Below, one piece after another: positions 4,540 through 55,716 of a DNA stretch of 64,000 nucleotides (position 1 is the stretch's first letter; the number at the start of each line of letters is the position of its first letter). The stretch spans positions 4,417 to 68,416 of the forward strand of contig CAKPAW010000002.1 of assembly GCA_934133165.1 (NCBI GenBank). Reading direction: 5' to 3'. The stretch comes from an uncultured Clostridia bacterium. Its GTDB lineage: Bacteria; Bacillota; Clostridia; TANB77; CAG-508. Under the pieces are notes generated by a model. It had not been told where the DNA came from, made no database searches, and saw only the letters and a list, made by a program, of their open reading frames with translations. The translations under genes and the position numbers were made by a program.

Positions 4540-5853
4540 ATGTCTAACGTAAAATTAGAACTAAAATACACTAAAATAGATACAAAAGAAATAATGAAAT
4601 ACAAGGAAAAAGTTCAAGAAATACATCAAGAACTACAAGAAAATAAAAACAAAGAAGAGGAATTTTTAGGTTGGTTAGAACATCCAACTAAATATAATAA
4701 AAAAGAATTTGAAAAAATAAAAAAATGCGCTAAAAAAATTAGAGAAGATTCAGAAATATTAGTAGTAATAGGAATAGGTGGCTCTTATTTAGGAGCAAGA
4801 GCAGTAATAGAAAGTTTAACACATACTTTTTATAATTTACTACCAAAAGAAGAAAGAAAATCACCACAAATTTTATATGTAGGAAACAATATTAGTGGTA
4901 AATATCTTGAAGATTTAGTAGAATTGATAGGAAACAGAGATTTATCTGTAAATGTAATATCAAAATCTGGAACAACTACAGAACCAGCTATAGCATTTAG
5001 ATTTTTCCGTGAATTTATGGAAAATAAATATGGAATAAAAGAAGCAAGAAAAAGAATATATGTTACAACAGATAAAGAAAAAGGAGCATTAAAAACACTT
5101 GCAACTAAAGAAGGTTACGAAACATTTATTATTCCAAACAATGTAGGTGGAAGATATTCTGTACTAACACCAGTAGGACTTCTTCCAATCGCAACTGCAG
5201 GAATAGATATAGACAAGTTAATGAGTGGAGCAAGATTTGCTGAAGAAAAATATAACGACGAAAATTTAAAATATAATGATTGCTATAAGTATGCTGTTGC
5301 AAGAAATTTACTATATAAAAATGATAAAAATATAGAAATATTAGTAAGTTACAAACCAAATTTACATTATTTTATAGAATGGTGGAAGCAACTATTTGGA
5401 GAAAGTGAAGGAAAAGACGGAAAAGGAATTTATCCATCTGGAGCAGAGTTTACAACAGACCTACATTCGTTAGGACAATACATACAAGAGGGAAGAAAAA
5501 ATTTATTTGAAACAGTTATAAATGTTGAAAAAGAAGAATCTAACATAAAAATAAATGTGGATGAAGATAATTTAGATGAGATAAATTACTTAGCAGATAA
5601 GACGATGGACTACGTAAATAGAAAAGCAATGGAAGGAACAATAAATGCTCATGTAGAAGGAGATGTGCCAAACATTGTTATAAACATGGAAAAGATAGAT
5701 GAAGAGACAATAGGACACTTAGTTTATTTCTTTGAACTTGCTTGTGCAATGAGCGGAAAAATATTAGGAGTAAATCCATTTAATCAACCTGGAGTAGAAA
5801 AATATAAAACAAATATGTTTAAATTACTTGGAAAACCAGGATATAATAAATAA
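4540..5853 (+). CDS. pgi: glucose-6-phosphate isomerase
   Basis: 437 aa; '[12 protein letters not shown]' and '[19 protein letters not shown]' PGI signatures; RBS 'gaggagg'. Confidence 0.9.
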
Positions 5854-11720: not shown

Positions 11721-11794
<74 letters not shown>

Positions 11795-11855
11795 TTATTG
11801 CGAACCCATGTTGATATAAATTAATTTCAATATGGTGTTCTTTTTTAGTTAAAAA

Positions 11856-11890
11856 TACAGCCAGTAGTCACTTGACTACTGGCTGTATCT
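11856..11890 (-). terminator. hairpin terminator downstream of the radical SAM gene (minus strand)
   Basis: 'acagccagtagtca'/'tgactactggctgt' perfect 14-bp stem; T-run on minus strand. Confidence 0.5.
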
Positions 11891-11992
11891 GTGAGATTAA
11901 TTACCGCATATTGATCCTCCACCTTCACAAGCATTCATTCTCTGGTGTCTTACAAAAAATCTCAGCAACCTTTTTCTTATCATAATATAATC

Positions 11993-12850
11993 TCACCACC
12001 TTTCTGTCATAGATCCATCTTCCCAGATAACTCCAAACTTATTTTCAGGAAAAGTTTTAAATATTTTTATAAATGACTTTAAAACATCTTCCCAACTAAC
12101 AGAAATTGTTTCTTCAACAAGAAAGCATGACCTTTTTAAGATAATTGGTGTAGAAAATGTTTCTTCAGGAATATTAATTAATGTTTGACATCCATTAGCA
12201 TATGGACTAGGCATATGAATTCCCATAGCATCTTCAAATGAAACGAAGTACTTTGGAGAGTTTTGTAATTCTCGAAGGAGAATTGAACCAAAGCCCATCT
12301 CATCATAATGATGAATACATGTTAATATATCTTTTCTTGTTGATAAATAAGGTTTAACTAAATTTAAATTAATCCTAATTTTTTCCTTAAAAGGTAATGA
12401 ATTATAAAATTCTTGTCTGTCATATTGTGAATTATTGTGTCTGATACAATCAGCAATTTCTTCATTATAGTGGTGTGCTGATATATTTAAACCATCTACT
12501 AATTCTAGTAAATCAAAGAATGTTGATTTTTGTGCAAAGCACTTGTATGGAACAGAAGTTGTAACATATATCTTTAAATTTGTCAGTCTTTTTACTTGCT
12601 GTACACAATATAAGAGGTCTTCTAAATAAAGACACGGTTCTCCACCTAGAAAAAGAACATCTTCAAATCCATTTTGATGTTCGATAATTGTATTTATTAT
12701 TTTCCGAACATTTGGTGGATTTTTTCCTTTGCATCGATTAGCAAAATCAATACAAAAAGGACAAGCATAGTTACATTCTCCTGTAAAATGAATGTTCATG
12801 CTCTTGTGAATACCATCGCAGTGGTTACATTTTAATCTCATATTTTCCAT
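11993..12850 (-). CDS. radical SAM protein (CxxxCxxC cluster motif, viperin-like motif context)
   Basis: 'NIHFTGECNYACPFC' CX3CX2C motif, 'GGEP' glycine-rich SAM motif, extra N-terminal CxxC; 285 aa ending in Trp. Confidence 0.7.
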   Translation of the reverse strand: MENMRLKCNHCDGIHKSMNIHFTGECNYACPFCIDFANRCKGKNPPNVRKIINTIIEHQNGFEDVLFLGGEPCLYLEDLLYCVQQVKRLTNLKIYVTTSVPYKCFAQKSTFFDLLELVDGLNISAHHYNEEIADCIRHNNSQYDRQEFYNSLPFKEKIRINLNLVKPYLSTRKDILTCIHHYDEMGFGSILLRELQNSPKYFVSFEDAMGIHMPSPYANGCQTLINIPEETFSTPIILKRSCFLVEETISVSWEDVLKSFIKIFKTFPENKFGVIWEDGSMTERW

Positions 12851-13202
12851 CCTTTCAATGTGTAATATTATTGGTATACCAATTTGCTTTTGGAATTATA
12901 AATTAAAATAATATATAAATTATAACATGGTTACATAATATTGTCAACTATTATCATTTCTTTAATTTAATTGACTTTTAATTTATTATTTTTTATTGAT
13001 AAAATATAAATCTTATGTTAAAGTATAAACAATAAATCGAGTTATATAAGATAGATTGAAACAAAGTATGCATTTTTTCGCATACCTGTTTCGTAATCGC
13101 TACATAAAAAGCCGAATAGTTCGACTTTTTTATTTATGGAAATCATTGAAAAAACAAAGCAATATTGATATACTATTAACAAATATTTTAAGAGGTGAAA
13201 AC

Positions 13203-16925: not shown

Positions 16926-17008
16926 GATATAAAGGAGTATATAAAAAAAGAGGAGATTTAAAAATCTCCTCTTAGTGATATAATACTAATTAGTTACTAT
17001 GATTGCTG

Positions 17009-17149
17009 TTAATTATCGTCATCGATGCTAAAATTAGAATCACAACCGGGTTCGGTACATTCGATTCCACCGCCATCACCGCTTTCAACAGCAAGTCCGC
17101 CACAATCAGGGCAATCAACCAGTTCAAAATCCTCAGGTCCATTCATCAT
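17009..17149 (-). CDS. small Cys-rich zinc-ribbon-like protein (46 aa, MMNGPEDFELVDCPDCGGLAVESGDGGGIECTEPGCDSNFSIDDDN)
   Basis: not in the ORF track; strong RBS 'aaggagga' 8 nt upstream of the ATG on the minus strand; CxxC...CxxxxC spacing. Confidence 0.5.
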   Translation of the reverse strand: MMNGPEDFELVDCPDCGGLAVESGDGGGIECTEPGCDSNFSIDDDN

Positions 17150-17213
17150 AATGCTTTTCCTCCTTGTTTTAAAAAATTATATCACATCGGTTAATTTAGA
17201 GTATTTAACTCAT

Positions 17214-17276
17214 ACAAAAATTATACTACAATTTCTAAATTATGTCAATATCGAAAAATTGTAGTATAATTTTTGT
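17214..17276. repeat. 21-bp perfect inverted repeat with 21-nt loop (acaaaaattatactacaattt ... aaattgtagtataatttttgt)
   Basis: seen directly; sits between the small Cys-rich gene and the 17509 module. Confidence 0.7.
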
Positions 17277-17508
17277 GAGTGATTTTCTACAACGAAAAAT
17301 TAATCAGCAATAATTCATTTTATATCTTCTTATAAAAAATCGAACGAATTTGTTAATGGAGCGGTTAATCTACAGCTTACGAACTTTAACGCTCTCTTTC
17401 TAAAAATATTATATAGTAATTCCTATATTTTTTCAAGGAAGTATGGGAATTTTTTGTATTTTATAGTATAATAAAATCATCTAAAATCTTTTATGAAAGG
17501 AAAATATT

Positions 17509-17673
17509 ATGGAGTGGTTATTAAATAATTTAGAATGGATTGTAGGTAGTGTTATCACTATACTAGGATTAATATTTGGTGTTTCTTTTGTTATCAAGAA
17601 GAACGTTCAGAAATCCGGTAGGAATTCTACAAATATTCAGATTGGAGAAATTAATTATGACAAAAGAAAGTAA
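17509..17673 (+). CDS. small membrane peptide (54 aa; MEWLLNNLEWIVGSVITILGLIFGVSFVIKKNVQKSGRNSTNIQIGEINYDKRK)
   Basis: RBS 'aaagga' 8 nt upstream; one TM helix; C-terminal motif 'KSGRNSTNIQIGEIN' repeated in the N-terminus of the next gene. Confidence 0.45.
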   Translation: MEWLLNNLEWIVGSVITILGLIFGVSFVIKKNVQKSGRNSTNIQIGEINYDKRK

Positions 17674-18697
17674 AATGAAACAAAAATCTGGAAAAGATTC
17701 TACTAATATTCAAATTCAAGAGTTTAATGCTGGATTATCTTATAAAGATGTAAAAGAATTATGTCTTGATTTAATAACCGACAAATTAGATTCTTATAAA
17801 GAAGAAGCTAGTATTGAGGCTAAAAAAAGAGAAGAAAAATTAAGAACTGATTTTATAGTTGAACTTGAAAAAAACAAAATAGATTTAAATGAGTTTAAAA
17901 ATCCATCAATGCAGTTGTGCTATATAGATGCGCAAAAAGGATATATATCTTATGGTGACGATACATCAGAAAAGATACTTCTTGAATTGTTAAAGGATAG
18001 AATATCAGAATCAGATAAAAGCATTTTGCAAATAAGCTTAAATGAAGCTGTTAAAGTAGCACCTTTGTTAATGAAAAAACATTTAAATACATTGTCATTA
18101 TTATTCTTTATAAAAGAAATGAGCATTATGGGAATTAGAACAAGAGCTGAACTAATTGATTTCATTAAAGACGTTGTATTAAAATTTACAAAAGACTCTT
18201 CACTAACGAAAGTTGACTATGAACATTTAGAATATAATAAATGCATCACAAAAATAGAAATATTTAAAAGTGATATTTTTGAAATAATGAGAAGTAAATA
18301 CAAGTATTATTTTTTAAAAGAAATTTCATATGATGATTTTCAACAAAAATATTCTCAATTAACAAAATACATTGGTTCATTAGCGTTTTTTAATGTTGAT
18401 TCTGATAATATGTTAAGATTTAAGGAAGTTGATTCTTTTTTGTCTTATAACGAATTGGATATAATATCATCAGATGATAGAGAAATGTTTAATAAAATGT
18501 TAAAGGATTTAACTATGTCAGATGAAGAGTTTGAGAGAACTATTTTAGATAATAATGACTTGCTATGTCCATTGTTTTATACCTGGAAAGAGGATTTAAT
18601 GTCAAGTTGTAGTTTAACTACTATAGGTAAAGTACTAGCTATGATTAATATAAAAATCGAATTAAAAATTCCAGTTGATATGAGTATTTGGATATAG
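17657..18697 (+). CDS. hypothetical cytoplasmic protein (346 aa) sharing the N-terminal motif with the upstream peptide
   Basis: RBS 'ggagaa'; 'MTKESKMKQKSGKDSTNIQIQEFN...'; no family recognised; overlaps the small ORF by 17 nt in another frame. Confidence 0.5.
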   Translation: MTKESKMKQKSGKDSTNIQIQEFNAGLSYKDVKELCLDLITDKLDSYKEEASIEAKKREEKLRTDFIVELEKNKIDLNEFKNPSMQLCYIDAQKGYISYGDDTSEKILLELLKDRISESDKSILQISLNEAVKVAPLLMKKHLNTLSLLFFIKEMSIMGIRTRAELIDFIKDVVLKFTKDSSLTKVDYEHLEYNKCITKIEIFKSDIFEIMRSKYKYYFLKEISYDDFQQKYSQLTKYIGSLAFFNVDSDNMLRFKEVDSFLSYNELDIISSDDREMFNKMLKDLTMSDEEFERTILDNNDLLCPLFYTWKEDLMSSCSLTTIGKVLAMINIKIELKIPVDMSIWI

Positions 18698-18723
18698 ATA
18701 ATATAAAGATGGGAGTAATAAGT

Positions 18724-19194
18724 ATGATTGAAAAATTAAAAGAAAAATATGTGTTTTTTGATGTCGATGGAACATTGTCTGAATATAGATATAAAGATAG
18801 ATTATATGGTGGTGGATGTTCTGAACTTGGATGTCAATCGCTTGAAGATTTATTGTTTAATGATTTATTTTATAAGGCTAGACCACTTAAAACAATGCAA
18901 AGAATTATAGAAAATTTGGATAGTAATAAAATATTTATTTTAGGTGCAGTTACAACTAATACTGAAATAGATCAAAAATATAAATGGTTATCTGAACATT
19001 ATCCAAATATAAAAAGAGAAAATGTATTTTTTATATGTTCTACATTATTAAAACCAGAAGTTATAATTGAATATTGTAAACACTATAACATTGATATAAA
19101 ACAAACAGCATTTGTAGATGATAGAATTGATGTTTTAAGAAAAGCGGAAACTTTAGGGATAGATTCTTATCACCCTAGTTCTCTTACAGAATAA
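18724..19194 (+). CDS. HAD-superfamily 5'(3')-deoxyribonucleotidase-like protein (NT5C-like)
   Basis: 'VFFDVDGTL' HAD motif I (DxDGT), C-terminal 'FVDDRIDVL' motif; ~156 aa. Confidence 0.5.
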   Translation: MIEKLKEKYVFFDVDGTLSEYRYKDRLYGGGCSELGCQSLEDLLFNDLFYKARPLKTMQRIIENLDSNKIFILGAVTTNTEIDQKYKWLSEHYPNIKRENVFFICSTLLKPEVIIEYCKHYNIDIKQTAFVDDRIDVLRKAETLGIDSYHPSSLTE

Positions 19195-19209
19195 TAAAGG
19201 ATTAAAAAA

Positions 19210-20418
19210 ATGAAGAGATTATTAAAAATTAGTTTTGATTTATCTTTATTATCTTTTATACCAATAATTTCATGGTTTTTATTAGGTATATTAGTTGATA
19301 AAAATTTAATTAATATTTTTACTTTAACTTATCCAATACAATTTATATATTATATTTTAAAATCAGTATTCTCTACTGGTGCTAATATTTGTAAGGAAAA
19401 AGATAAAAATAAAAATGCTGTAATGTCAGGTATGGTTATGGGAACTATCGTTTCGGTTATTATTTTTTCTATACTTTTAATTAATGTAGATAATTATATA
19501 AATTTTATGAATATGGATATTAATACATATAAAGTATTTACTATATATTCCATATTACAATTGTTTATTTGTTTAGAATTTGCAATGATGTTAAATAAAT
19601 TATATTATGAAGAAAACAATACAATAGCAAATAAATATTCCTTAATATTTAATTTATTAAATTTTGGATTATTAATTGGTACATCTTTAATAACCAAAAA
19701 TCAAATTGCTATAATTACTACAACACTAATTCCATTGGCATTATTTACTTTATACATTTATATAAAAAATAGCAATAAATTTAAATTACAATTAAATGTT
19801 TTAAAATGTATTAAATATGATTCAGTAGAATTGTTTAATAATATTGCGTTTTTCTTGATTTTTTTATTTGGTTTAAGTAATGCTCTAGAATATGGTGAAC
19901 AATTTGCAATTGCGCTTACATTTGTGGCTCTTATAACCGATACGCAATGGGATACTGCTGATGCAATAGTTACTGCAGCAACAATTGATATAAGTAAAAA
20001 CGAATTCAACTATAAATATCATAGGAATAATGCTTATAAATTATTAAGTTTATTATTTATAACTAGTTTAATTATGTTTGTTTGTTTATATGGTTTTTAT
20101 GATTTAAATTTTAAAATTACAATGATTTATTTTGGATTTGAAATTATAAATTTCATAATTTATCCTATATACAGAATTAAAACTTGTTATTTACAGTTAG
20201 AATGGTCTGCATTTAAAACAACATCTAATAAAATATGTGCTTCTATTTTAAGAATGATGATGTCTTTATTAAAAACACCATTTTGTACAGGTATAGGACA
20301 AGTATGCTCATCAATATATCAATTTATTTCTGTAAGCATATTTTTTAAATTAAATTATAATGTAGATAAAACAGGAAAAGTAACATCCAAAAAAATCATT
20401 AGTAAAGACAATGCTTAA
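19210..20418 (+). CDS. polytopic membrane protein (flippase/MOP-like?); last 12 nt plus stop lie inside repeat R1
   Basis: 402 aa, ~10-12 TM segments; ends 'KDNA*' exactly like the ABC transporter at 25299. Confidence 0.4.
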   Translation: MKRLLKISFDLSLLSFIPIISWFLLGILVDKNLINIFTLTYPIQFIYYILKSVFSTGANICKEKDKNKNAVMSGMVMGTIVSVIIFSILLINVDNYINFMNMDINTYKVFTIYSILQLFICLEFAMMLNKLYYEENNTIANKYSLIFNLLNFGLLIGTSLITKNQIAIITTTLIPLALFTLYIYIKNSNKFKLQLNVLKCIKYDSVELFNNIAFFLIFLFGLSNALEYGEQFAIALTFVALITDTQWDTADAIVTAATIDISKNEFNYKYHRNNAYKLLSLLFITSLIMFVCLYGFYDLNFKITMIYFGFEIINFIIYPIYRIKTCYLQLEWSAFKTTSNKICASILRMMMSLLKTPFCTGIGQVCSSIYQFISVSIFFKLNYNVDKTGKVTSKKIISKDNA

Positions 20419-20872
20419 TTGGCATTGTCTTTATCATTTTCAATAGGCATATATTTTTTTATGTACTATTTTGTATCTTTAAATATTCAATTTTATTTCC
20501 AATTGCTCTTTCATCTTCAAAATATCCAAGATAGTGAAATCTATTTTTTACTTTAATTAAGCATTCAATATTTTCTTCTAGTGCTTTGGCAATATTCTCT
20601 ATAATATATTCTTCTTTTTTAGATTTTGATTCTTCTTTAAATTTTGGAATTTTAATCTCATATCCTACAATTAAATTTCTAATATATTCAGATTGTGATA
20701 TGTTTAAGTTGGAAGAATTATTTTTTAAAACAAATTTTTCATCATCACTTAAAAATACATTAACTTTATTATTTCTTATTCTCATAAATTTCAAAGCTCC
20801 TTTTTTAAATATTAAGGGTATGGGAATTCCCATAATAGAATTTGTATGGGAGTACAAATTCAGTGCTGGCTA
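20404..20872. repeat. direct repeat R1 (~470 bp; copy of 25285-25757) carrying a MobC-like gene and palindromes
   Basis: starts with 11-bp-stem hairpin AAAGACAATGC-TTAATTG-GCATTGTCTTT; contains 16-bp palindrome TATGGGAATTCCCATA (20819-20834) and hairpin GAATTTGTA(T/C)GGGAGTACAAATTC (20838-20861). Confidence 0.75.
20459..20785 (-). CDS. MobC-family ribbon-helix-helix protein (mobilisation accessory protein-like), copy 1
   Basis: 'MRIRNNKVNVFLSDDEKFVLK...LNISQSEYIRNLIVG' matches the MobC pattern (vRlt.eE...S.SeylR); true start likely MRIRNN (ORF-track start at 20857 reads through the upstream palindrome). Confidence 0.6.
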   Translation of the reverse strand: MRIRNNKVNVFLSDDEKFVLKNNSSNLNISQSEYIRNLIVGYEIKIPKFKEESKSKKEEYIIENIAKALEENIECLIKVKNRFHYLGYFEDERAIGNKIEYLKIQNST

Positions 20873-20878
20873 TACATA

Positions 20879-20902
20879 ATATGTGAGTATGTACTCACAT
20901 AT
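20879..20902. terminator. perfect palindrome ATATGTGAGTA-TG-TACTCACATAT overlapping the tnpV-like stop
   Basis: 11-bp arms; unique to R1 flank. Confidence 0.5.
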
Positions 20903-21257
20903 TTTCATTATAAATTAACTCTTTTAATATAATTTCTTCTGCTATATTTTTATAATTATTCATAAGTTTTGCCCACTCAATAGGGTTATTATCTTTATTT
21001 TTTTCAGTCAGTTTTTCATCACTTTTTATATAATTATGCATTAGAGTATTTAATAAATCTTCCGAATTTTTACTTACTGAAATAAGATAATTAGTAAGTT
21101 CTTCTTTCATTAAAAGTGAAGTATATAGTGCTTTTTTATACTCCTTTAAATATGCTAGTCTCGTTCTTCCATATTTGTTTATATTTCCTTTTTTAGTTTC
21201 TTTTAAAGTTAAATCTGGTAATAAATAATCTCCATGTTTTGTATAAGTTATTTCCAT
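20895..21257 (-). CDS. TnpV-family transposon protein (as in Tn4451-like elements)
   Basis: 120 aa; 'GDYLLPDLTL...YGRTRLAYLKEYKKALYTSLL...WAKLMNN...AEEIILKELIY' matches the TnpV pattern; directly downstream of the serine recombinase. Confidence 0.55.
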   Translation of the reverse strand: MEITYTKHGDYLLPDLTLKETKKGNINKYGRTRLAYLKEYKKALYTSLLMKEELTNYLISVSKNSEDLLNTLMHNYIKSDEKLTEKNKDNNPIEWAKLMNNYKNIAEEIILKELIYNENM

Positions 21258-21284
21258 AATTAAATCATTCCTTTCTTATTTTTA

Positions 21285-23069
21285 TTAAATATTTATAATT
21301 GTTTTTGGTATTAATAGTAGGTTATCTACTATGTTGTTATCTTCAATATATGGGCAGTTTATAATCCCATCTTGATAAAAATGTTGTTTTATTAGTTCCA
21401 TATATAGAAGTAAATCTGCTTCAGAATATTTATTATCTTCATATTTTTTTGTAGAAAATATAAAGTAATCTTGTTCTATTTTTTCTAATTCTTGTTTATT
21501 AATTTGTTCTTTATATTTAATTCCAATTTCATTATTATTTAGAATTTCATTAAGATAATTTAAATATTCTTTATTGCTTTTTGATATAAATTCATCAGTA
21601 AATTTTATATTTTTAATTTCAATATTGTAATTTTTGTCTCTTGTTATTTCTAAACTTGCTATTAATCTTTGTATTAATTCTTTCTTTGTTTTTCTATTTA
21701 GGCTATCCCATAAAAATGAAAATCCAAGTTTATTTTGAAATAGAATATTATTATCATTTTGATAATCACATTCTAATTTTTTAAGTAATTCTACTGTGTA
21801 ATCTTTAAAGTCATCATCTGGATCTAGTTTGTTTTTCTTTTGATTTAGTTTGTATATTTCTTTTTTAATAACTTCATTTTTATAGTTAATTACTTCAACA
21901 TTTAGAGTAGAACTTAAATATAGATCTACTAACTTTTTCTCTTGTTGTTTTAGTTTTTCAATAGCATTATCTATATCCTTTATTTCTTTTGTTTTGGTAG
22001 AATTACATACAATAATTTCATTATCTGCATCATACATATATCTAGTTAATTCATTTAAAATACGTCCCAGTTTTTGTTCTATTTTATCTGAACTATAATG
22101 AAGTCCTTTGTATTTACAATTACTATTTTTACAAGTTAAGTGATAATATACTTTTTCTTTTTCTGTACCACTATTTTTAAATGAATTAGTAGAAGAAAGT
22201 ATTCCACCACAATCAGGACATTTAACAATTGATGTAAATAAATGAATATGTTCTCCGTAGTTTGCGTGCTTATTTTTCTCTAAATTTGCTCTTGTAACAT
22301 TCCAAGTTTGTTCATCAATTATAGGTTCACAATAGTTATTAACTTTTAAAACATCTTGAGGTTTTCTTTTATATTTACCATATTCAAATATTCCAACATA
22401 AATAGTATTAGTTAGTATTTTATAGACTCGGTCACTTCGCCATTTACCTTGTTTTAAGTATGAATTATTATCTTTCATAATACTTGCTATGTTTCTTGTA
22501 GAGTGTCCTTTTTTACATAGTTCAAATATTTCTTTTACAACTTCTGCTTCAATAGGTTCTACTTCTAAATGACAAGTTTCTTTATTTCTAATATAGCCAT
22601 AAGGTGCTTTGCTAGGATGAATACGTTCTAATGCCATTTCTTCCATAGCACGTTTAGTTCTTGCTCCAATCTCTTTTCTTTCTCTTTGACTAAATACTAA
22701 ATTCATCCCAAAAATCATTTCACCATTAGCAGTAGATACATCATAAGGCTCAAGTATTAATTCAATCTTAATATCGTGTTCTTCGCAGTAATTAAGTAAC
22801 CAAAAACCATCATAATTGTTTCTAGTTAATCTATCTACTTTAATAGCAATTAACTTATCAATTTTCTTGGATTTGATATCTTTAAGTAATCTTTGCATTT
22901 CAGGTCTCATTAAATCTTTTCCAGAATGTCCTGCATCATTGGATACATCTACAATATCATAATCATTCTTTTCACAATATTCTTTAATCATTCTAAGTTG
23001 TGAATCAATAGAATAACCATTATCTCTTTGGTCGTCAGTAGATACTCTTACATAAACACCACATCTCAT
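21285..23069 (-). CDS. large serine recombinase (TnpX/TndX-like site-specific recombinase)
   Basis: 594 aa; N-terminal resolvase catalytic domain 'CGVYVRVSTDDQRDNGYSIDSQ' (nucleophile Ser), recombinase domain, Cys-rich zinc-ribbon region 'CPDCGG...C..C'. Confidence 0.85.
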   Translation of the reverse strand: MRCGVYVRVSTDDQRDNGYSIDSQLRMIKEYCEKNDYDIVDVSNDAGHSGKDLMRPEMQRLLKDIKSKKIDKLIAIKVDRLTRNNYDGFWLLNYCEEHDIKIELILEPYDVSTANGEMIFGMNLVFSQRERKEIGARTKRAMEEMALERIHPSKAPYGYIRNKETCHLEVEPIEAEVVKEIFELCKKGHSTRNIASIMKDNNSYLKQGKWRSDRVYKILTNTIYVGIFEYGKYKRKPQDVLKVNNYCEPIIDEQTWNVTRANLEKNKHANYGEHIHLFTSIVKCPDCGGILSSTNSFKNSGTEKEKVYYHLTCKNSNCKYKGLHYSSDKIEQKLGRILNELTRYMYDADNEIIVCNSTKTKEIKDIDNAIEKLKQQEKKLVDLYLSSTLNVEVINYKNEVIKKEIYKLNQKKNKLDPDDDFKDYTVELLKKLECDYQNDNNILFQNKLGFSFLWDSLNRKTKKELIQRLIASLEITRDKNYNIEIKNIKFTDEFISKSNKEYLNYLNEILNNNEIGIKYKEQINKQELEKIEQDYFIFSTKKYEDNKYSEADLLLYMELIKQHFYQDGIINCPYIEDNNIVDNLLLIPKTIINI

Positions 23070-23156
23070 AGTTTTCCTCCTTTCATTAAATTTCGAGAAA
23101 TATTAAAATACCTCTCATATGTTTCCTCACAAATAGGCAAAATGTATAGTCTAAAA

Positions 23157-23435
23157 TTAAAATTTTTTCAAAAATTGTGTAATTTCTTTAATATTATACT
23201 TTTGATTATGCTCTTTAATATAAAAAGTCTTATTTGATATTTCATTAACTTTGTATTCAAGTATTGTAAGAGTAGTAGGATATGTAATTTGGTATTCAGT
23301 AGGTATTACTACTTGTAGATTGGTGTGCAATATAGTTTTAATCTGTCCTAATATAACCTTATATTTAAAGTTTTTTAAGATGTTGGTTAAATCTTTATTA
23401 GGTTTTAGATTTTCAATTACTTTAAATTCAAGCAT
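23157..23435 (-). CDS. hypothetical protein (92 aa) upstream of the recombinase
   Basis: ORF only; no family recognised. Confidence 0.3.
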   Translation of the reverse strand: MLEFKVIENLKPNKDLTNILKNFKYKVILGQIKTILHTNLQVVIPTEYQITYPTTLTILEYKVNEISNKTFYIKEHNQKYNIKEITQFLKKF

Positions 23436-23477
23436 GAAAAAAGTCCTCTTTTCTGTGATAAGAGAACTTTTAAAGTT

Positions 23478-23534
23478 TTATATAAAATAAAAACTTACGA
23501 ACAATTAAGTCCGTAAGTTGATTTCAAATGGAGC
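23478..23534. repeat. 57-bp direct repeat DR1 (copy of 25843-25899, 1 mismatch); contains a terminator hairpin and ends 'tggagc'
   Basis: 'ttatataaaataaaaacttacga(a/g)caattaagtccgtaagttgatttcaaatggagc'. Confidence 0.75.
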
Positions 23535-23697
23535 CTTAACTATACATGTTTACGAAATTAAGACTATAAGATTTGATTAAATCTCTCTGATAGATTTATT
23601 ATATCATTTTATTAGATATTTTCAAGGGAGTATAGAAAAAAATGTCTAAATATAGTATAATTTATTTGCAAGAAAATAATATGTGGAGTAGATTAAG

Positions 23698-25299
23698 ATG
23701 AAAAAAAACAACATTAATTTTATATTTGGATTATTAGACAGGAAAAAAGTTGCTTTATGCTTGTTTATTGAGGCCTTTTTAGATTTTATTTACTACGTTA
23801 TTCCTTATACTTTTGCTCTTTTTTTAACAATGCCTTTTACTATTGAAAAAGCAGTAATTGTTGCTTCGATATTTATTGCTTCTAAATCAGTTAGATGTTT
23901 TGTGTTATATTTAGAGAGAAAAGTTATGGATAATTATTTATATGATTACTCTAATGTTCAATATTTAGAATACTACAAAAAATTAACTAAAGTGCCTGTA
24001 GAAACTTTATCTAAGTACCAAACAGGATATTTAGAGAATATAATAGAAAAGATATCTGAGTTAGTTAAAAAGATTCTTAGTGCAGAATATATAGGAATAT
24101 TATTATCTTTTGGATTTTTCTTTCTTACTGTATTTCAACAATCAAAAATTTTATTTGTAACATCGTTAGTATTAAGTATTTTATGTGTTATGATAAGTGT
24201 ATACATATTAAAAAAATCAAATAAACATGTTGAAGATTTATATGATAAAGAATATGAGTATTCATCTGTATATCAAGACTTTATTAGTAATATTAGAACT
24301 GTTAAAGCATTAAATGATGACAAATATTTTGAAAAAATTATATCAAAAGAAGGAAACGAATGTTATAAAAAACAAAACAAGTATGTTAAATGCTATTCAT
24401 TAGAAGAATTAATAAGAAATATTTTAATAGTGATACCATTTGCATTAGCAATTATAAAGGCAGTTATAGATTTATCTAATGGAATTGATACACTAGGAAT
24501 AATTACATTTTATATATCTATTTATTTAGAAATGGGATTTATATTTGATGAATTATCTGGAACAATTGTTAGTGGATTTGAATTAAAAGCATTAAAGAAA
24601 AAATGTATTCAATTATTTAGTAAATTAGATGAAAGAGAATTATTAACTAATTTTAATAAAATAGAATTATCAAATATAGATTTAAAATATAAAGAATCTA
24701 ATTTTAATATTAAAGTTGATAATATGGTAATAAAAAATAAAGATAAAATTTCAATAACTGGGAAGTCTGGTCAAGGAAAAACATCTATAATCAACTTGAT
24801 TTTAGGAAATATAACTACTTATAAAGGAAATGCTAAAATAGATGAAAATAATATGAGAGATTATAGACTTGACATAGGAGTTGTAAGTCAAGAAATAGAA
24901 TTATTTAATATGACTATAAAAGAAAATTTATGTTTAGATAAGAGTATTTCAGATGAAAAAATAATAAATTATTTAAAAGAATTAGAACTAGATGAAATTC
25001 TAATGTTTGAAGATGGAATATATACCATAGTTGGTGAAAAAGGATTAAAACTTTCAACTGGTCAAAAAAGAAGAATAAATATTTTAAGAAGTTATCTAAT
25101 GGAAAAAGATGTTTATATTTTAGATGAGCCTACATCTAATTTAGATAAACATACTGAAGAAATTGTAGTGGATTTTATATTAAAACACTTTAAAGATAAA
25201 ACATTAATAATTGCTACACATAATGAAAAAATAAATGAAATATGTAATAAGTTTTATCACTTTGATAACCATAAATTATTATTAAAAGACAATGCTTAG
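23698..25299 (+). CDS. ABC transporter, fused permease/ATP-binding (exporter type)
   Basis: 533 aa; 6 N-terminal TM helices; Walker A 'GKSGQGKTS', signature 'LSTGQKRR', Walker B 'VYILDEPTSNLD'; last 12 nt plus stop lie inside repeat R2 ('KDNA*'). Confidence 0.75.
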   Translation: MKKNNINFIFGLLDRKKVALCLFIEAFLDFIYYVIPYTFALFLTMPFTIEKAVIVASIFIASKSVRCFVLYLERKVMDNYLYDYSNVQYLEYYKKLTKVPVETLSKYQTGYLENIIEKISELVKKILSAEYIGILLSFGFFFLTVFQQSKILFVTSLVLSILCVMISVYILKKSNKHVEDLYDKEYEYSSVYQDFISNIRTVKALNDDKYFEKIISKEGNECYKKQNKYVKCYSLEELIRNILIVIPFALAIIKAVIDLSNGIDTLGIITFYISIYLEMGFIFDELSGTIVSGFELKALKKKCIQLFSKLDERELLTNFNKIELSNIDLKYKESNFNIKVDNMVIKNKDKISITGKSGQGKTSIINLILGNITTYKGNAKIDENNMRDYRLDIGVVSQEIELFNMTIKENLCLDKSISDEKIINYLKELELDEILMFEDGIYTIVGEKGLKLSTGQKRRINILRSYLMEKDVYILDEPTSNLDKHTEEIVVDFILKHFKDKTLIIATHNEKINEICNKFYHFDNHKLLLKDNA

Positions 25300-25757
25300 T
25301 TGGCATTGTCTTTATAATTTTCAATATGAGGTATATATTTTTTTAGCGTATTATTTTGTGTATTTAAAAATTCGATTTTAGTTCCAATTGCTTGTTCATC
25401 TTCAAAATATCCAAGATGATGAAATTTATTTTTTACTTTGATTAAGCAATTAATATTTTCTTCTAGTGCTTTAACAATATTTTCTATAATATATTCATCT
25501 TTTTTAGGTTTTTGTTCTTCTTTGACTTCTGGAATTTTAATCTCATATCCTATAATTAAATTTCTAATATATTCAGACTGAGATAAGTTTAATTTTGAAG
25601 AATCTCTTTTTAAAATAAACTTCTCATCATCACTTAAAAATACATTAACTTTATTATTTCTTATTCTCATAATTTGAAATCTCCTTTCTAAAAATTTAAG
25701 GGTATGGGAATTCCCATATACGAATTTGTACGGGAGTACAAATTCAGTGCTGGCTAG
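25285..25757. repeat. direct repeat R2 (~470 bp; copy of 20404-20872)
   Basis: same hairpin (25285-25313), MobC-like gene, palindrome TATGGGAATTCCCATA (25703-25718), hairpin GAATTTGTACGGGAGTACAAATTC (25722-25745). Confidence 0.75.
25296..25670 (-). CDS. MobC-family ribbon-helix-helix protein, copy 2
   Basis: 124 aa 'MRIRNNKVNVFLSDDEKFILKRDSSKLNLSQSEYIRNLIIG...'; ~80% identical to copy 1. Confidence 0.6.
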   Translation of the reverse strand: MRIRNNKVNVFLSDDEKFILKRDSSKLNLSQSEYIRNLIIGYEIKIPEVKEEQKPKKDEYIIENIVKALEENINCLIKVKNKFHHLGYFEDEQAIGTKIEFLNTQNNTLKKYIPHIENYKDNAN

Positions 25758-25842
25758 TCATAGATTTTATTCCCATATTCAAAAAAACAAAAAAAGAGGA
25801 TTAAATTATTTTGATAATTTTTTTGCTCTTTTTGAAGATTAT

Positions 25843-25893
25843 TTATATAAAATAAAAACTTACGAGCAATTAAGTCCGTAAGTTGATTTCAAA

Positions 25894-25899
<6 letters not shown>
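25843..25899. repeat. 57-bp direct repeat DR2 overlapping the last 6 nt of tRNA-Gly and its 3' terminator hairpin
   Basis: see DR1. Confidence 0.75.
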
Positions 25900-25967
<68 letters not shown>

Positions 25968-26296
25968 AAATGTAACTAAACATATTATATAACATATAAA
26001 AGATACTTTCAAGTAAAAAATAACAAAAATGACTTGCCAAAATAAAAAACAAATGGTAAAATGAATAAAAATTTAAAGGGGAGTAGCTTATAAACTACTA
26101 ATCAACACCTCGGCAGAAAATGCATGGTTAGTAACCTTTAAGGTAAGCAAGACTTTTAAAGAAAGGAGTACATGTAAATGTAGTGTTTTCTTTAGGAGTC
26201 TTATTTTTTATATTCTAGAAAAGACTTTTAAGAAGAGATAGAGGATTTTAAGAAAAAATAGACTATTAAACAAAAAAATGGAAAAAATAAAATTAG

Positions 26297-30673: not shown

Positions 30674-31633
30674 GTGGCAAATAGGGGCAAAAAAACTAAA
30701 CGTATAGAATTTATAATAGGGCTTATTATTTTCATATTGATTGCAATATTAAGTGAAAGTGGAATCATACCAATAGGAAAAATCTTTAATAGTGAAAATA
30801 GCGAAGTTTTAGATAGTAACGAAATTTCAAAAAGAGTTACAGCAGAAGAAAGTGAAAATGTAACATTAGAAGGAGAAGACATATTGCAAATACACTTTTT
30901 TGATGTAGGGCAAGCAGATAGCACATTAATAATAAGTGACAATAAAACTATGCTAATAGATGCTGGAACTAATGAAATGGGCTCAAAAGTAGTAGCAAAT
31001 ATAAAAAAACTGGGAATAGAAAAAATAGACTATCTTATAGGAACTCATCCACACGAAGATCATATTGGTGGGTTAGATGATGTAATTAAAAATTTTGAAA
31101 TAGGAACAATATATATGCCTAAAATACAAACGAATACAAAAACTTTTGAAGATGTATTAGATGCAATAACAGAAAAAAACTTGACTGTTACTACTCCAAA
31201 AGAAGGCGATAAATTTGAATTAGGAAAAGCAGAATGTGAAATAATGCTTTGTGGAACTGGAACAAAAGAAGAAAAAGAAAATTTAAATTTATCTTCAATA
31301 GTAACAAAAGTAACATATGGAAAACAAAGCTATTTATTTATGGGTGATAGCGAAAAAGAAAATGAACAATCTAGAACTTGGCCAAAAGTTAATGTACTAA
31401 AAGTAGGACATCATGGTTCAAATACAAGCTCTTCAAAGGAATTTTTAGATCAAGTATTACCACAAATAGCAATAATAAGTGTGGGAAAAGACAATAGTTA
31501 CGGGCATCCAAAACAAGTAATATTAGACAGATTAAATAAAATAGGGGCAGTAATTTATACAACTAAAGATAAAGGAAATATATTAATAGAAAGTGACGGA
31601 AACAATAACAAAGTTTCTTTCTATAGAAGATAA
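30674..31633 (+). CDS. ComEC/Rec2-related MBL-fold metallo-hydrolase with N-terminal TM anchor
   Basis: 'HPHEDHIGG' HxHxDH motif, 'VGHHGS'; GTG start with RBS 'aggggg'. Confidence 0.7.
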   Translation: MANRGKKTKRIEFIIGLIIFILIAILSESGIIPIGKIFNSENSEVLDSNEISKRVTAEESENVTLEGEDILQIHFFDVGQADSTLIISDNKTMLIDAGTNEMGSKVVANIKKLGIEKIDYLIGTHPHEDHIGGLDDVIKNFEIGTIYMPKIQTNTKTFEDVLDAITEKNLTVTTPKEGDKFELGKAECEIMLCGTGTKEEKENLNLSSIVTKVTYGKQSYLFMGDSEKENEQSRTWPKVNVLKVGHHGSNTSSSKEFLDQVLPQIAIISVGKDNSYGHPKQVILDRLNKIGAVIYTTKDKGNILIESDGNNNKVSFYRR

Positions 31634-31689
31634 ATATGGCAGAAATTAGATTTTGTAGCAGTTTGCACTGCGTACAAAATCTTGATTCT
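31634..31689. repeat. intergenic repeat family 2, copy 1 (atatggcagaaattagattttgtagcagtttgcactgcgtacaaaatcttgattct)
   Basis: reverse-complement copy at 55623-55677 (~4 mismatches); internal hairpin tttgtagcagt-ttgc-actgcgtacaaa. Confidence 0.7.
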
Positions 31690-31723
31690 GGTCTTTTACT
31701 AAAATAGAACAGAAAGGCGAAAA

Positions 31724-48828: not shown

Positions 48829-48903
48829 TGGCTGGGGTACTGTGATTCGAACACAGGAATGTCGGAGTCAGAGTCCGATGCCTTACCGCTTGGCGATACC
48901 CCA
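48829..48903 (-). tRNA. tRNA-Gln (anticodon CUG)
   Basis: reverse complement TGGGGTATCGCCAAGCGGTAAGGCATCGGACTCTGACTCCGACATTCCTGTGTTCGAATCACAGTACCCCAGCCA; U1:A72 typical of tRNA-Gln. Confidence 0.85.
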
Positions 48904-55346: not shown

Positions 55347-55622
55347 GAGAATGTCGAAATTTGTCTTACGATTTTTCTTGATTTTCAGGTAAAATCATGC
55401 TAGTATAAGGTCATGCAATTTATTTGACAATTGCATGACTAATTTTATTTTTTATAAAGCAACTTAGGAAGAGACAGAAATTTTAATTAATAATCTAGTT
55501 TATTTATTTTAAAATTATTTCTAAAAAGATTTAAGATTAAATATTAGGAATTCAAAATTAAAGATTCAAGTTTCAAGTTTCAAATATTAAATTTAAAAAT
55601 CAAAATTAAATCTAAAAAAATA

Positions 55623-55677
55623 GAATCAAGATTTTATACGCAGTGCAAACTGCTACAAAATCTAAATTCTGCCATAT
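55623..55677. repeat. intergenic repeat family 2, copy 2 (inverted orientation relative to 31634-31689)
   Basis: reverse complement 'atatggcagaatttagattttgtagcagtttgcactgcgtataaaatcttgattct'. Confidence 0.7.
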
Positions 55678-55689
55678 TTATCTTCTACA

Positions 55690-55716
55690 GAAAGTTATCA
55701 TACTATGATAACTTTC
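55690..55716. promoter_or_regulatory. 13-bp-arm perfect palindrome GAAAGTTATCATA-C-TATGATAACTTTC (operator-like)
   Basis: seen directly, ~160 bp upstream of the Rpn-family gene. Confidence 0.4.

Follow-up and report, generated by a model that had tools for sequence, protein, structure and literature searches.

The locus described here lies within a 64,000-nt stretch of contig CAKPAW010000002.1 from an uncultured Clostridia bacterium (the window). It comprises a tRNA-Gly(tcc) gene (25894–25967, minus strand; ARAGORN; Rfam tRNA, 61.7 bits) followed, in the direction of the tRNA, by two gene units, E_A and E_B, each of which starts with a copy of the same direct repeat. A repeat search of the window aligned 23477–23534 (DR1) with 25842–25899 (DR2) over 58 nt at 98% identity, with A at 23501 versus G at 25866 as the sole mismatch. 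Within the window, a 45-nt part of the repeat matched DR1 and DR2 only, with up to three mismatches allowed (0 of 100 shuffles matched), and short-word BLAST gave nothing above noise that would represent a third, degenerate copy. An earlier interpretation from the letters alone (the sequence-only reading) had described 57-bp copies with one mismatch, the second of which overlaps the last 6 nt of the tRNA-Gly gene. This repeat is real, and the overlap of DR2 with the tRNA gene amounts to exactly GCTCCA (25894–25899). On the minus strand, DR2 forms the tRNA-proximal end of E_A and consists of the GCTCCA core, the arm TTTGAAATCAACTTACGGAC (P′) and a terminator hairpin at about 25857–25884 with its T-run; the outer part of P′ uses the same bases as the 5′ half of this hairpin. 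DR1 provides the corresponding P′ arm and terminator at the tRNA-proximal end of E_B, likewise on the minus strand, and was detected by the terminator scan as well. Folding gave −15.5 kcal/mol (z −5.2) for hairpin and U-run of DR1 and −10.8 kcal/mol (z −3.2) for those of DR2. The P′ hairpin with its U-run is retained in three sequence-divergent variants, which is consistent with a role as terminator for the tRNA gene. No Rfam family matched the 57-mer or its junctions.

E_A extends from 25899 down to 23535 (2,365 bp) and is ordered, from the tRNA onwards, as P′ with terminator, a linker, an inverted-repeat-rich region resembling an origin of transfer (oriT), a NikA-like gene, an ATP-binding cassette (ABC) exporter gene on the opposite strand, a promoter region and a second arm, P. 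The linker (25763–25841, minus) contains a second hairpin-like stretch, AAAAAGAG...CCTCTTTTT. The oriT-like region (25671–25762, minus) includes the palindrome TATGGGAATTCCCATA at 25695–25710 and a stem, GAATTTGTAC-GGGA-GTACAAATTC, at 25714–25737; its function as an oriT is inferred. The adjacent gene (25296–25670, minus), termed MobC-like in the sequence-only reading, encodes a ribbon-helix-helix protein of 124 aa that is assigned here as NikA-like (Pfam PF21983, 3.7e-9; NCBIfam MbpA, 9.6e-5, below cut-off). A hairpin terminator found by terminator scan and repeat search (25285–25313) separates it from the convergent cargo gene (23698–25299, plus), which encodes a fused transmembrane and nucleotide-binding domain exporter of 533 aa (Pfam ABC_membrane and ABC_tran). 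The far end (23535–23697, minus) carries divergent promoter-like sites, 23625 to 23598 on the minus and 23633–23661 on the plus strand, and the P arm cttaatttcgtaaacatgtatagttaag at 23535–23562, read on the minus strand.

E_B, probably the autonomous element of the pair, reaches from 23534 down to 17363 (6,172 bp). Its order from the tRNA is P′ with terminator, a small open reading frame (ORF) denoted orf92, a large serine recombinase (LSR) gene, a TnpV homologue, an oriT-like region, a NikA-like gene, four cargo genes on the opposite strand and a P arm. E_A is built on the same frame with orf92, the recombinase and TnpV missing; its linker fills the place that these three genes take in complete elements. 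The LSR of 594 aa (21285–23069, minus) combines a Resolvase-type catalytic domain (Pfam PF00239, 6.7e-32) with an intact serine motif, YVRVSTDDQ at residues 6–14, and, C-terminal to it, a Recombinase domain (PF07508, 2.2e-19) and a zinc ribbon. The latter scored 20.1 bits for Zn_ribbon_recom, below the cut-off of 25.3, yet the four cysteines (CPDC...C...C) are present. The protein matched a PHROG integrase family at 1.4e-99 and, over the catalytic domain, the TP901-1 integrase at 5.5e-19. Public data hold at least 910 related recombinase clusters, and the best 120 matches are all at least 74% identical. The 92-aa orf92 (23157–23435, minus) always precedes the recombinase and is more conserved than it by sequence comparison: 2,477 clusters were found in public data, of which the best 120 are all at least 88% identical. 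Pfam, NCBIfam, PHROGs and PADLOC gave no match for orf92. The counts of synonymous (121) and non-synonymous (163) codon differences fit a coding sequence, and the AlphaFold model was unusable at a mean pLDDT of 42.9.

Downstream of the LSR gene, E_B encodes the TnpV homologue (20895–21257, minus; Pfam PF14198, 1.1e-31), followed by a module at 20402–20878 (minus) made up of terminator, NikA-like gene (20459–20785) and the second copy of the oriT-like region (20787–20878). Together with 25285–25762 of E_A, 20404–20878 forms a repeat of about 475 bp, 87–97% identical, that the sequence-only reading had overlooked. The cargo (17509–20418, plus) comprises a 54-aa ORF, an LPO_1073/Vpar_1526-family protein, a HAD-like protein and a 402-aa protein without family match. 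The far end (17363–17436, minus) shows an outward promoter-like site from 17436 to 17408 and the P arm gttaaagttcgtaagctgtagattaacc at 17363–17396, minus strand. It should be noted that promoter-like sites as a whole were not above chance in this AT-rich DNA (73 found versus 82.6 expected). E_B has its own LSR, a NikA-like gene and the inverted-repeat-rich putative oriT, with no relaxase family match in Pfam or NCBIfam, and may be an integrative mobilisable element, a class with its own integrase, oriT and mobilisation genes and no mating-pore genes. The far end of E_B was located by searching for known arm families that are not followed by a 57-mer, and this revealed at 17357–17362 (minus) a GCTCCA, the displaced original 3′ end of the tRNA, with host flank leftwards. 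The sequence-only reading had missed this site and had also drawn the element boundaries differently: the ABC element in fact terminates in the arm at 23535–23562, and the array at 17357–17396.

The wider distribution of the repeat was addressed with a 24-nt part of it, CCGTAAGTTGATTTCAAATGGAGC, searched for exact matches in bacterial genomes at one genome per species. At least 119 matches were found, and the hosts among the matches listed are nearly all uncultured low-GC gut genomes labelled Bacilli, Clostridia, Tenericutes or “CAG”. Read in tRNA direction, the conserved block is GCTCCATTTGAAATCAACTTACGGACTTAA(AA/TT)GTTCGT(G/A)AGTTTTTATTTTATATAAA, and in all matches listed conservation starts exactly at the G of GCTCCA. 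In the 121 junctions listed, the left neighbour is the 3′ part of tRNA-Gly with anticodon tcc (43), gcc (11) or ccc (4) or of tRNA-Thr with cgt (6) or ggt (4); 53 have no tRNA there. These flanks without tRNA fall into about eight recurrent arm families, of which the one next to DR1, at 23535–23562, reads ...ttcg(c/t)a(t/a)ac(g/a)tgtatagttaag; arms of this family border the 57-mer in 8 further genomes. Two continuations are common on the right of the 57-mer: 56 of the 124 copies listed lead into a ribosome-binding site, orf92 and then the LSR gene, and 31 into a hairpin, oriT-like region and NikA, as DR2 does. In the LSR-bearing copies, orf92 starts at a median of 98 nt and the LSR at a median of 580 nt downstream, both in the orientation of the tRNA. 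An LSR is present in just 12 of the 54 listed copies with at least 2.6 kb of downstream sequence.

The 57-mer recurs at five tRNA isoacceptors and at about eight unrelated element ends and is borne by the element: tRNA sequence is limited to GCTCCA, 6 of 57 nt, and the remaining 51 nt are not derived from the tRNA. The sequence-only reading, in which the two copies were attL and attR sharing a tRNA-derived core, is revised in this respect. DR1 and DR2 are the equivalent ends of two neighbouring elements rather than the two ends of one, and the last 6 nt of the tRNA-Gly(tcc) gene (25894–25899) are now supplied by the element. We conclude that 17357–25899 is very probably a tandem array of two site-specific integrative elements of one family, with the 3′ end of tRNA-Gly(tcc) as their integration target. 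Site-specific integration at this tRNA end and the neighbouring serine recombinase as the likely enzyme, both suggested from the letters alone, are retained in this assignment.

The symmetry of the attachment (att) sites is in agreement with an LSR system. A serine-integrase attP with a non-palindromic dinucleotide at its centre would be expected to show the P-GCTCCA-P′ layout. In both LSR-encoding elements with two visible ends, E_B and the element of a cultured Amedibacillus (see below), the P arm is of one type, denoted f, and contains GTTCGTAAG, the reverse complement of CTTACG(G/A)AC in P′; the motif occupies positions 15–23 on both sides. Junctions of the P(f)-GCTCCA-P′ kind show 14.2 of 24 reverse-complement matches about the C-T of GCTCCA, and no more than 7.7 at any other centre. 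The sites are accordingly quasi-palindromes around a non-palindromic dinucleotide with few bp shared between them, 7 bp in the Amedibacillus element. At the tRNA junctions the best centre is shifted by 2, which places the T-loop motif GTTCGATTC 4 bp nearer the centre than the attP motif. Such a motif shift is reportedly expected between attB and attP in the half-site model of serine integrases.

On this basis, the recombinase would pair the P-GCTCCA-P′ site of a circular element with the T-arm and acceptor end of the tRNA gene, and strand exchange is predicted from the sequence to occur at the C-T dinucleotide, tRNA positions 72–73. A GCTACA at 13099, the relic end of a third family member described below, fits a crossover 5′ of CCA. 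The CCA end and terminator of the element would replace those of the tRNA, which would stay intact, and later arrivals may target either the tRNA-GCTCCA-P′ or the P-GCTCCA-B′ junction of the resident, building up arrays. E_A, in turn, would be moved in trans by the recombinase of E_B or of a relative, and recombination between DR2 and DR1 would free it as a circle of 2,365 bp. The junctions predicted by this scheme are ...CCCGCCATCCGCT|CCATTAACAAATTCG for the empty site, ...gtatagttaagGCT|CCATTTGAAATCAAC for the E_A circle and ...gtagattaaccGCT|CCATTTGAAATC for the E_B circle. Transfer between cells might proceed by conjugative mobilisation via the NikA-like protein and the oriT-like region, with a relaxase provided by another element.

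Comparison with related genomes showed where such loci differ. In a second strain (strain 2; sample ERZ27287532, loci L121 and L123) the flanks are 99.7–99.8% identical to the window. On the left, its colinearity with the window ends precisely with the final base of DR1 (23534), beyond which strain 2 carries a 3-kb unit with a variant P′, a truncated resolvase and a dCMP/MafB19-type deaminase (L123 10791–13810). At the tRNA (L121 6095–9554), strain 2 keeps the module of NikA, oriT-like region and 57-mer, and the ABC gene is replaced by genes for SMODS, DUF5680 and two other proteins behind a P arm of 88% identity. The cargo of these two units looks defence-like. The 2.3-kb unit between the repeats, the variable presence of which the sequence-only reading had proposed as a check, does vary between strains. 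A simpler arrangement was found in cultured Amedibacillus sp. YH-ame10 (L124), the LSR of which is 79% identical to that of the window. Here, a single element of 4.16 kb follows tRNA-Gly(tcc) and is composed of GCTCCATTTGAAGACAACTTACGAACC..., orf94, LSR, TnpV, NikA, two cargo genes and the arm ...agttcgtaacttgtagcttaact. It is succeeded by GCTCCAT and the native terminator, so that the direct repeat is just 7 bp long.

The cargo of E_A is also found elsewhere. An identical ABC protein occurs on 14 contigs from many samples, and several copies are located inside complete LSR elements. At locus L127, an ABC module 98.7% identical in DNA to that of the window belongs to a complete element that also carries NikA, TnpV and LSR, in a different host as judged by a TrxB region of merely 67% identity. 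As the same module sits in a complete LSR element of another host, E_A looks like the LSR-less form of a circulating element. With both arms kept and no recombinase of its own, it also has the make-up of a cis-mobilisable element. Separately, a stretch of L127 past the far end of the complete ABC element (5782–5835), GCTCCATTTGAGAACAATTTACGAACTATATGATATCGTAAGTTG with a T-run after it, is about 70% identical to the P′ arm as judged by eye; it is the decayed remains of an older element or else a native tRNA flank ancestral to P′.

Islands inserted by tyrosine recombinases are typically recognised by direct repeats at the 3′ end of a tRNA gene, and the absence of an integrase between DR1 and DR2 could be reconciled with one 2.3-kb island of this type, flanked by 57-bp attL and attR with a core copied from the tRNA, that has lost its enzyme. 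We regard this as very improbable, given that merely 6 of the 57 nt are tRNA sequence, that this 57-mer is found beside five tRNA isoacceptors and eight arms other than tRNA, followed by a serine recombinase at a fixed distance, and that the single-element relative has a repeat of just 7 bp. Moreover, the ORFs of 9–32 kb gave no match to the phage-integrase family, so that the sequence-only reading was right about the lack of a tyrosine integrase and the lack extends well beyond the repeats. It is extremely unlikely that the 57-mer is a generic dispersed intergenic repeat or common terminator, akin to repetitive extragenic palindromes (REP) or miniature inverted-repeat transposable elements (MITE), without a role in recombination. 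The sequence is indeed very abundant, folds as a terminator and lacks an adjacent tRNA in nearly half of the listed copies. Against this stand its 5′ boundary, which is always GCTCCA, and its left neighbour, always the end of a tRNA-Gly or tRNA-Thr gene or a family arm in the matches listed; strain differences break exactly at its edge, together with the P(f) arm it makes up a quasi-palindrome about C-T, and no Rfam family covers it. The sequence-only reading had named recurrence of the repeat at many loci without a tRNA as evidence against integration. Taken literally, such recurrence is what was found (53 of 121 junctions), but these loci are element junctions of the same family and not unrelated intergenic repeats.

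A third explanation concerns the origin of E_A. The repeat could stem from local duplication of, or homologous recombination between, modules of NikA and 57-mer, leaving E_A as a fixed, immobile deletion remnant. E_A does resemble a complete ABC-carrying element minus orf92, LSR and TnpV, the NikA modules are repeated, and the breakpoint of strain 2 at 25277 lies inside the element. At 88% identity between the NikA modules, as opposed to 98% between the 57-mers, the arrangement is not a recent duplication; the LSR-less continuation is a widespread subtype (the 31 of 124 listed copies mentioned above), and recombinase-less units are common in other arrays. This explanation is accordingly judged improbable.

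Some of the data nonetheless weigh against a tandem array assembled by site-specific integration. The point at which strain 2 becomes colinear with the window again is the cargo terminator (25277) and not an att junction; therefore, homologous recombination between modules also shapes the arrays. The P arms of recombinase-less elements show weak symmetry with P′ (9.1 of 24), and the TCGTAA motif of E_A is 1 bp out of register. Because of this weak symmetry and shifted motif, E_A may be a poor substrate or a fixed remnant. In addition, the recombinase-less P arms belong to unrelated families, all of which one recombinase clade would have to use. The GCTACA relic was seen once and could have arisen by later mutation. 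Family searches in Pfam and NCBIfam found no relaxase gene in E_A or E_B, which makes mobilisation a conjecture. Finally, both strains on record are occupied at this tRNA-Gly gene and provide no empty site, the predicted empty junction gave 0 matches in metagenome scans, and no excised circle was found.

A third member of the family, overlooked in the sequence-only reading, is present in the window at the other tRNA-Gly(tcc) gene (11721–11794). This 1.3-kb unit (11789–13104, plus) consists of GCTCCA, a variant P′ hairpin, a viperin-like radical S-adenosylmethionine gene (11993–12850, minus; PADLOC pVip, 3.7e-11), a P arm at 13073–13098, the GCTACA relic and a terminator. By comparison, the tRNA-Gln gene at 48829–48903 has no family-type flank. 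Small units without mobility genes are found elsewhere too: at locus L055, three 57-mers within 4 kb bound two units of 2.1 kb (histidine phosphatase and GDPD) and 1.6 kb (major facilitator superfamily transporter), neither of which carries LSR or NikA. At the other extreme, an LSR 78% identical to that of the window heads an element of more than 12 kb at a tRNA-Gly gene (L125 9360–21791). This element encodes a 1,521-aa FtsK/SpoIIIE protein and may serve the small elements as a helper or be a conjugative relative. A distant-mode search of 19000–26000 against a plasmid database returned just tRNA and ABC fragments and no related plasmid. Two further observations were made in the window. Just outside the array lies a cysteine-rich 46-aa ORF (17005–17248, minus) preceded by a perfect 12/12 match to a sigma-70-like promoter (17248 to 17220). 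BLAST of the locus against the window also revealed an inverted repeat of 82 nt with 92.7% identity between about 31617–31698 and 55613–55694.

The family is very common in gut bacteria and apparently undescribed, as literature searches found no published description of this serine-recombinase tRNA family. Its hosts are mostly uncultured, the small cargo units that it builds into variable arrays comprise defence genes among others, and the family could explain strain-level differences in gene content at tRNA loci. Its att site spans about 48 bp, with crossover predicted at C-T, and could, moreover, aid the engineering of low-GC gut bacteria. A more far-reaching notion, conceivable and on balance doubtful, is that the family performs LSR-driven gene capture in the manner of an integron. 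Short promoter-bearing units, many of them with one or two genes and no mobility gene, would be stacked in trans at tRNA-Gly and tRNA-Thr, each regenerating the CCA end and terminator. If true, this would constitute a major undescribed exchange route for defence (viperin-like, SMODS, deaminase), transport and metabolic genes in uncultured low-GC gut bacteria. The array itself is not an integron, having no IntI, nor a phage satellite, having no phage genes.

Among described systems, the closest analogues are the ssrA islands of Dehalococcoides, SCCmec and Tn4451. The ssrA islands integrate at the 3′ part of a tRNA-like gene, with a CcrB-family LSR by the proximal att end (McMurdie et al. 2011, PMC3146451). 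They are arranged in tandem, separated by direct repeats with extra conserved flank, and their recombinase-less units have been read as cis-mobilisable (PMC3146451). The likeness is evident in the tandem LSR units at the 3′ part of a tRNA-type gene, recombinase-less units included. The ssrA islands differ in their target, the T-loop of transfer-messenger RNA, a 20-bp repeat, a second small serine recombinase (DsiA), other module genes and a larger size (PMC3146451). The present family uses tRNA-Gly and tRNA-Thr, at positions 72–73 by prediction, and combines one recombinase with orf92 and TnpV in units of 1.3–6 kb.

The LSR of staphylococcal cassette chromosome (SCC) elements targets the very 3′ end of a conserved gene, rlmH, which is made whole again by element sequence. 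Composite arrays of such cassettes in tandem contain ones that lack a recombinase and are delimited by copies of the integration-site sequence. SCCmec (CcrAB/CcrC) and the present family are thus alike in 3′-end integration with restoration of the gene, tandem arrays and recombinase-less units. The best NCBIfam match of the LSR is CcrB (6.5e-45), but with 153.8 bits, and 107.8 bits for CcrC, against cut-offs of 900 it is not a Ccr orthologue. There is no CcrA partner, SCC elements are larger (20–60 kb), and the target is tRNA-Gly or tRNA-Thr instead of rlmH (orfX); the array is not an SCC cassette.

Tn4451 and Tn4453 (TnpX, TnpV) share with E_B the LSR gene at the element end followed by tnpV, are likewise small and have been described as mobilisable. 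In Tn4451, tnpX is driven by a promoter at the circle junction, and a possible outward promoter across the joined ends exists here as well, in a scan that was not above chance. Despite the TnpV homologue, the present elements are not members of this group: they lack the MobV relaxase TnpZ, carry the NikA-like accessory gene alone and end in GCTCCA at specific tRNAs, and the LSR is only weakly similar to TnpX (4.4e-7 over the catalytic domain). Tn4451, by contrast, has GA ends, low target specificity and TnpZ (PMC5704250).

Tyrosine-integrase tRNA islands and tycheposons resemble the family in integrating at tRNA 3′ ends with restoration of the gene and in forming tandem cargo arrays, some of them integrase-less. 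They employ almost exclusively tyrosine recombinases and a tRNA core of at least 15 nt, whereas a serine recombinase and 6–8 shared nt are found here; with no tyrosine recombinase by the tRNA and a repeat that lacks a substantial tRNA 3′ segment (6 nt), the array is not a classic island of this kind. According to a 2017 review, mobilisable elements with serine recombinases integrate within genes and have very short repeats, and tRNA 3′ ends are the sites of tyrosine integrases (PMC5704250). In summary, tandem serine-recombinase islands at a tRNA-type gene are an already-known kind, of which the present family is a variant. What sets it apart from described serine-recombinase elements is the predicted entry at tRNA positions 72–73, for which it supplies its own CCA end and terminator.

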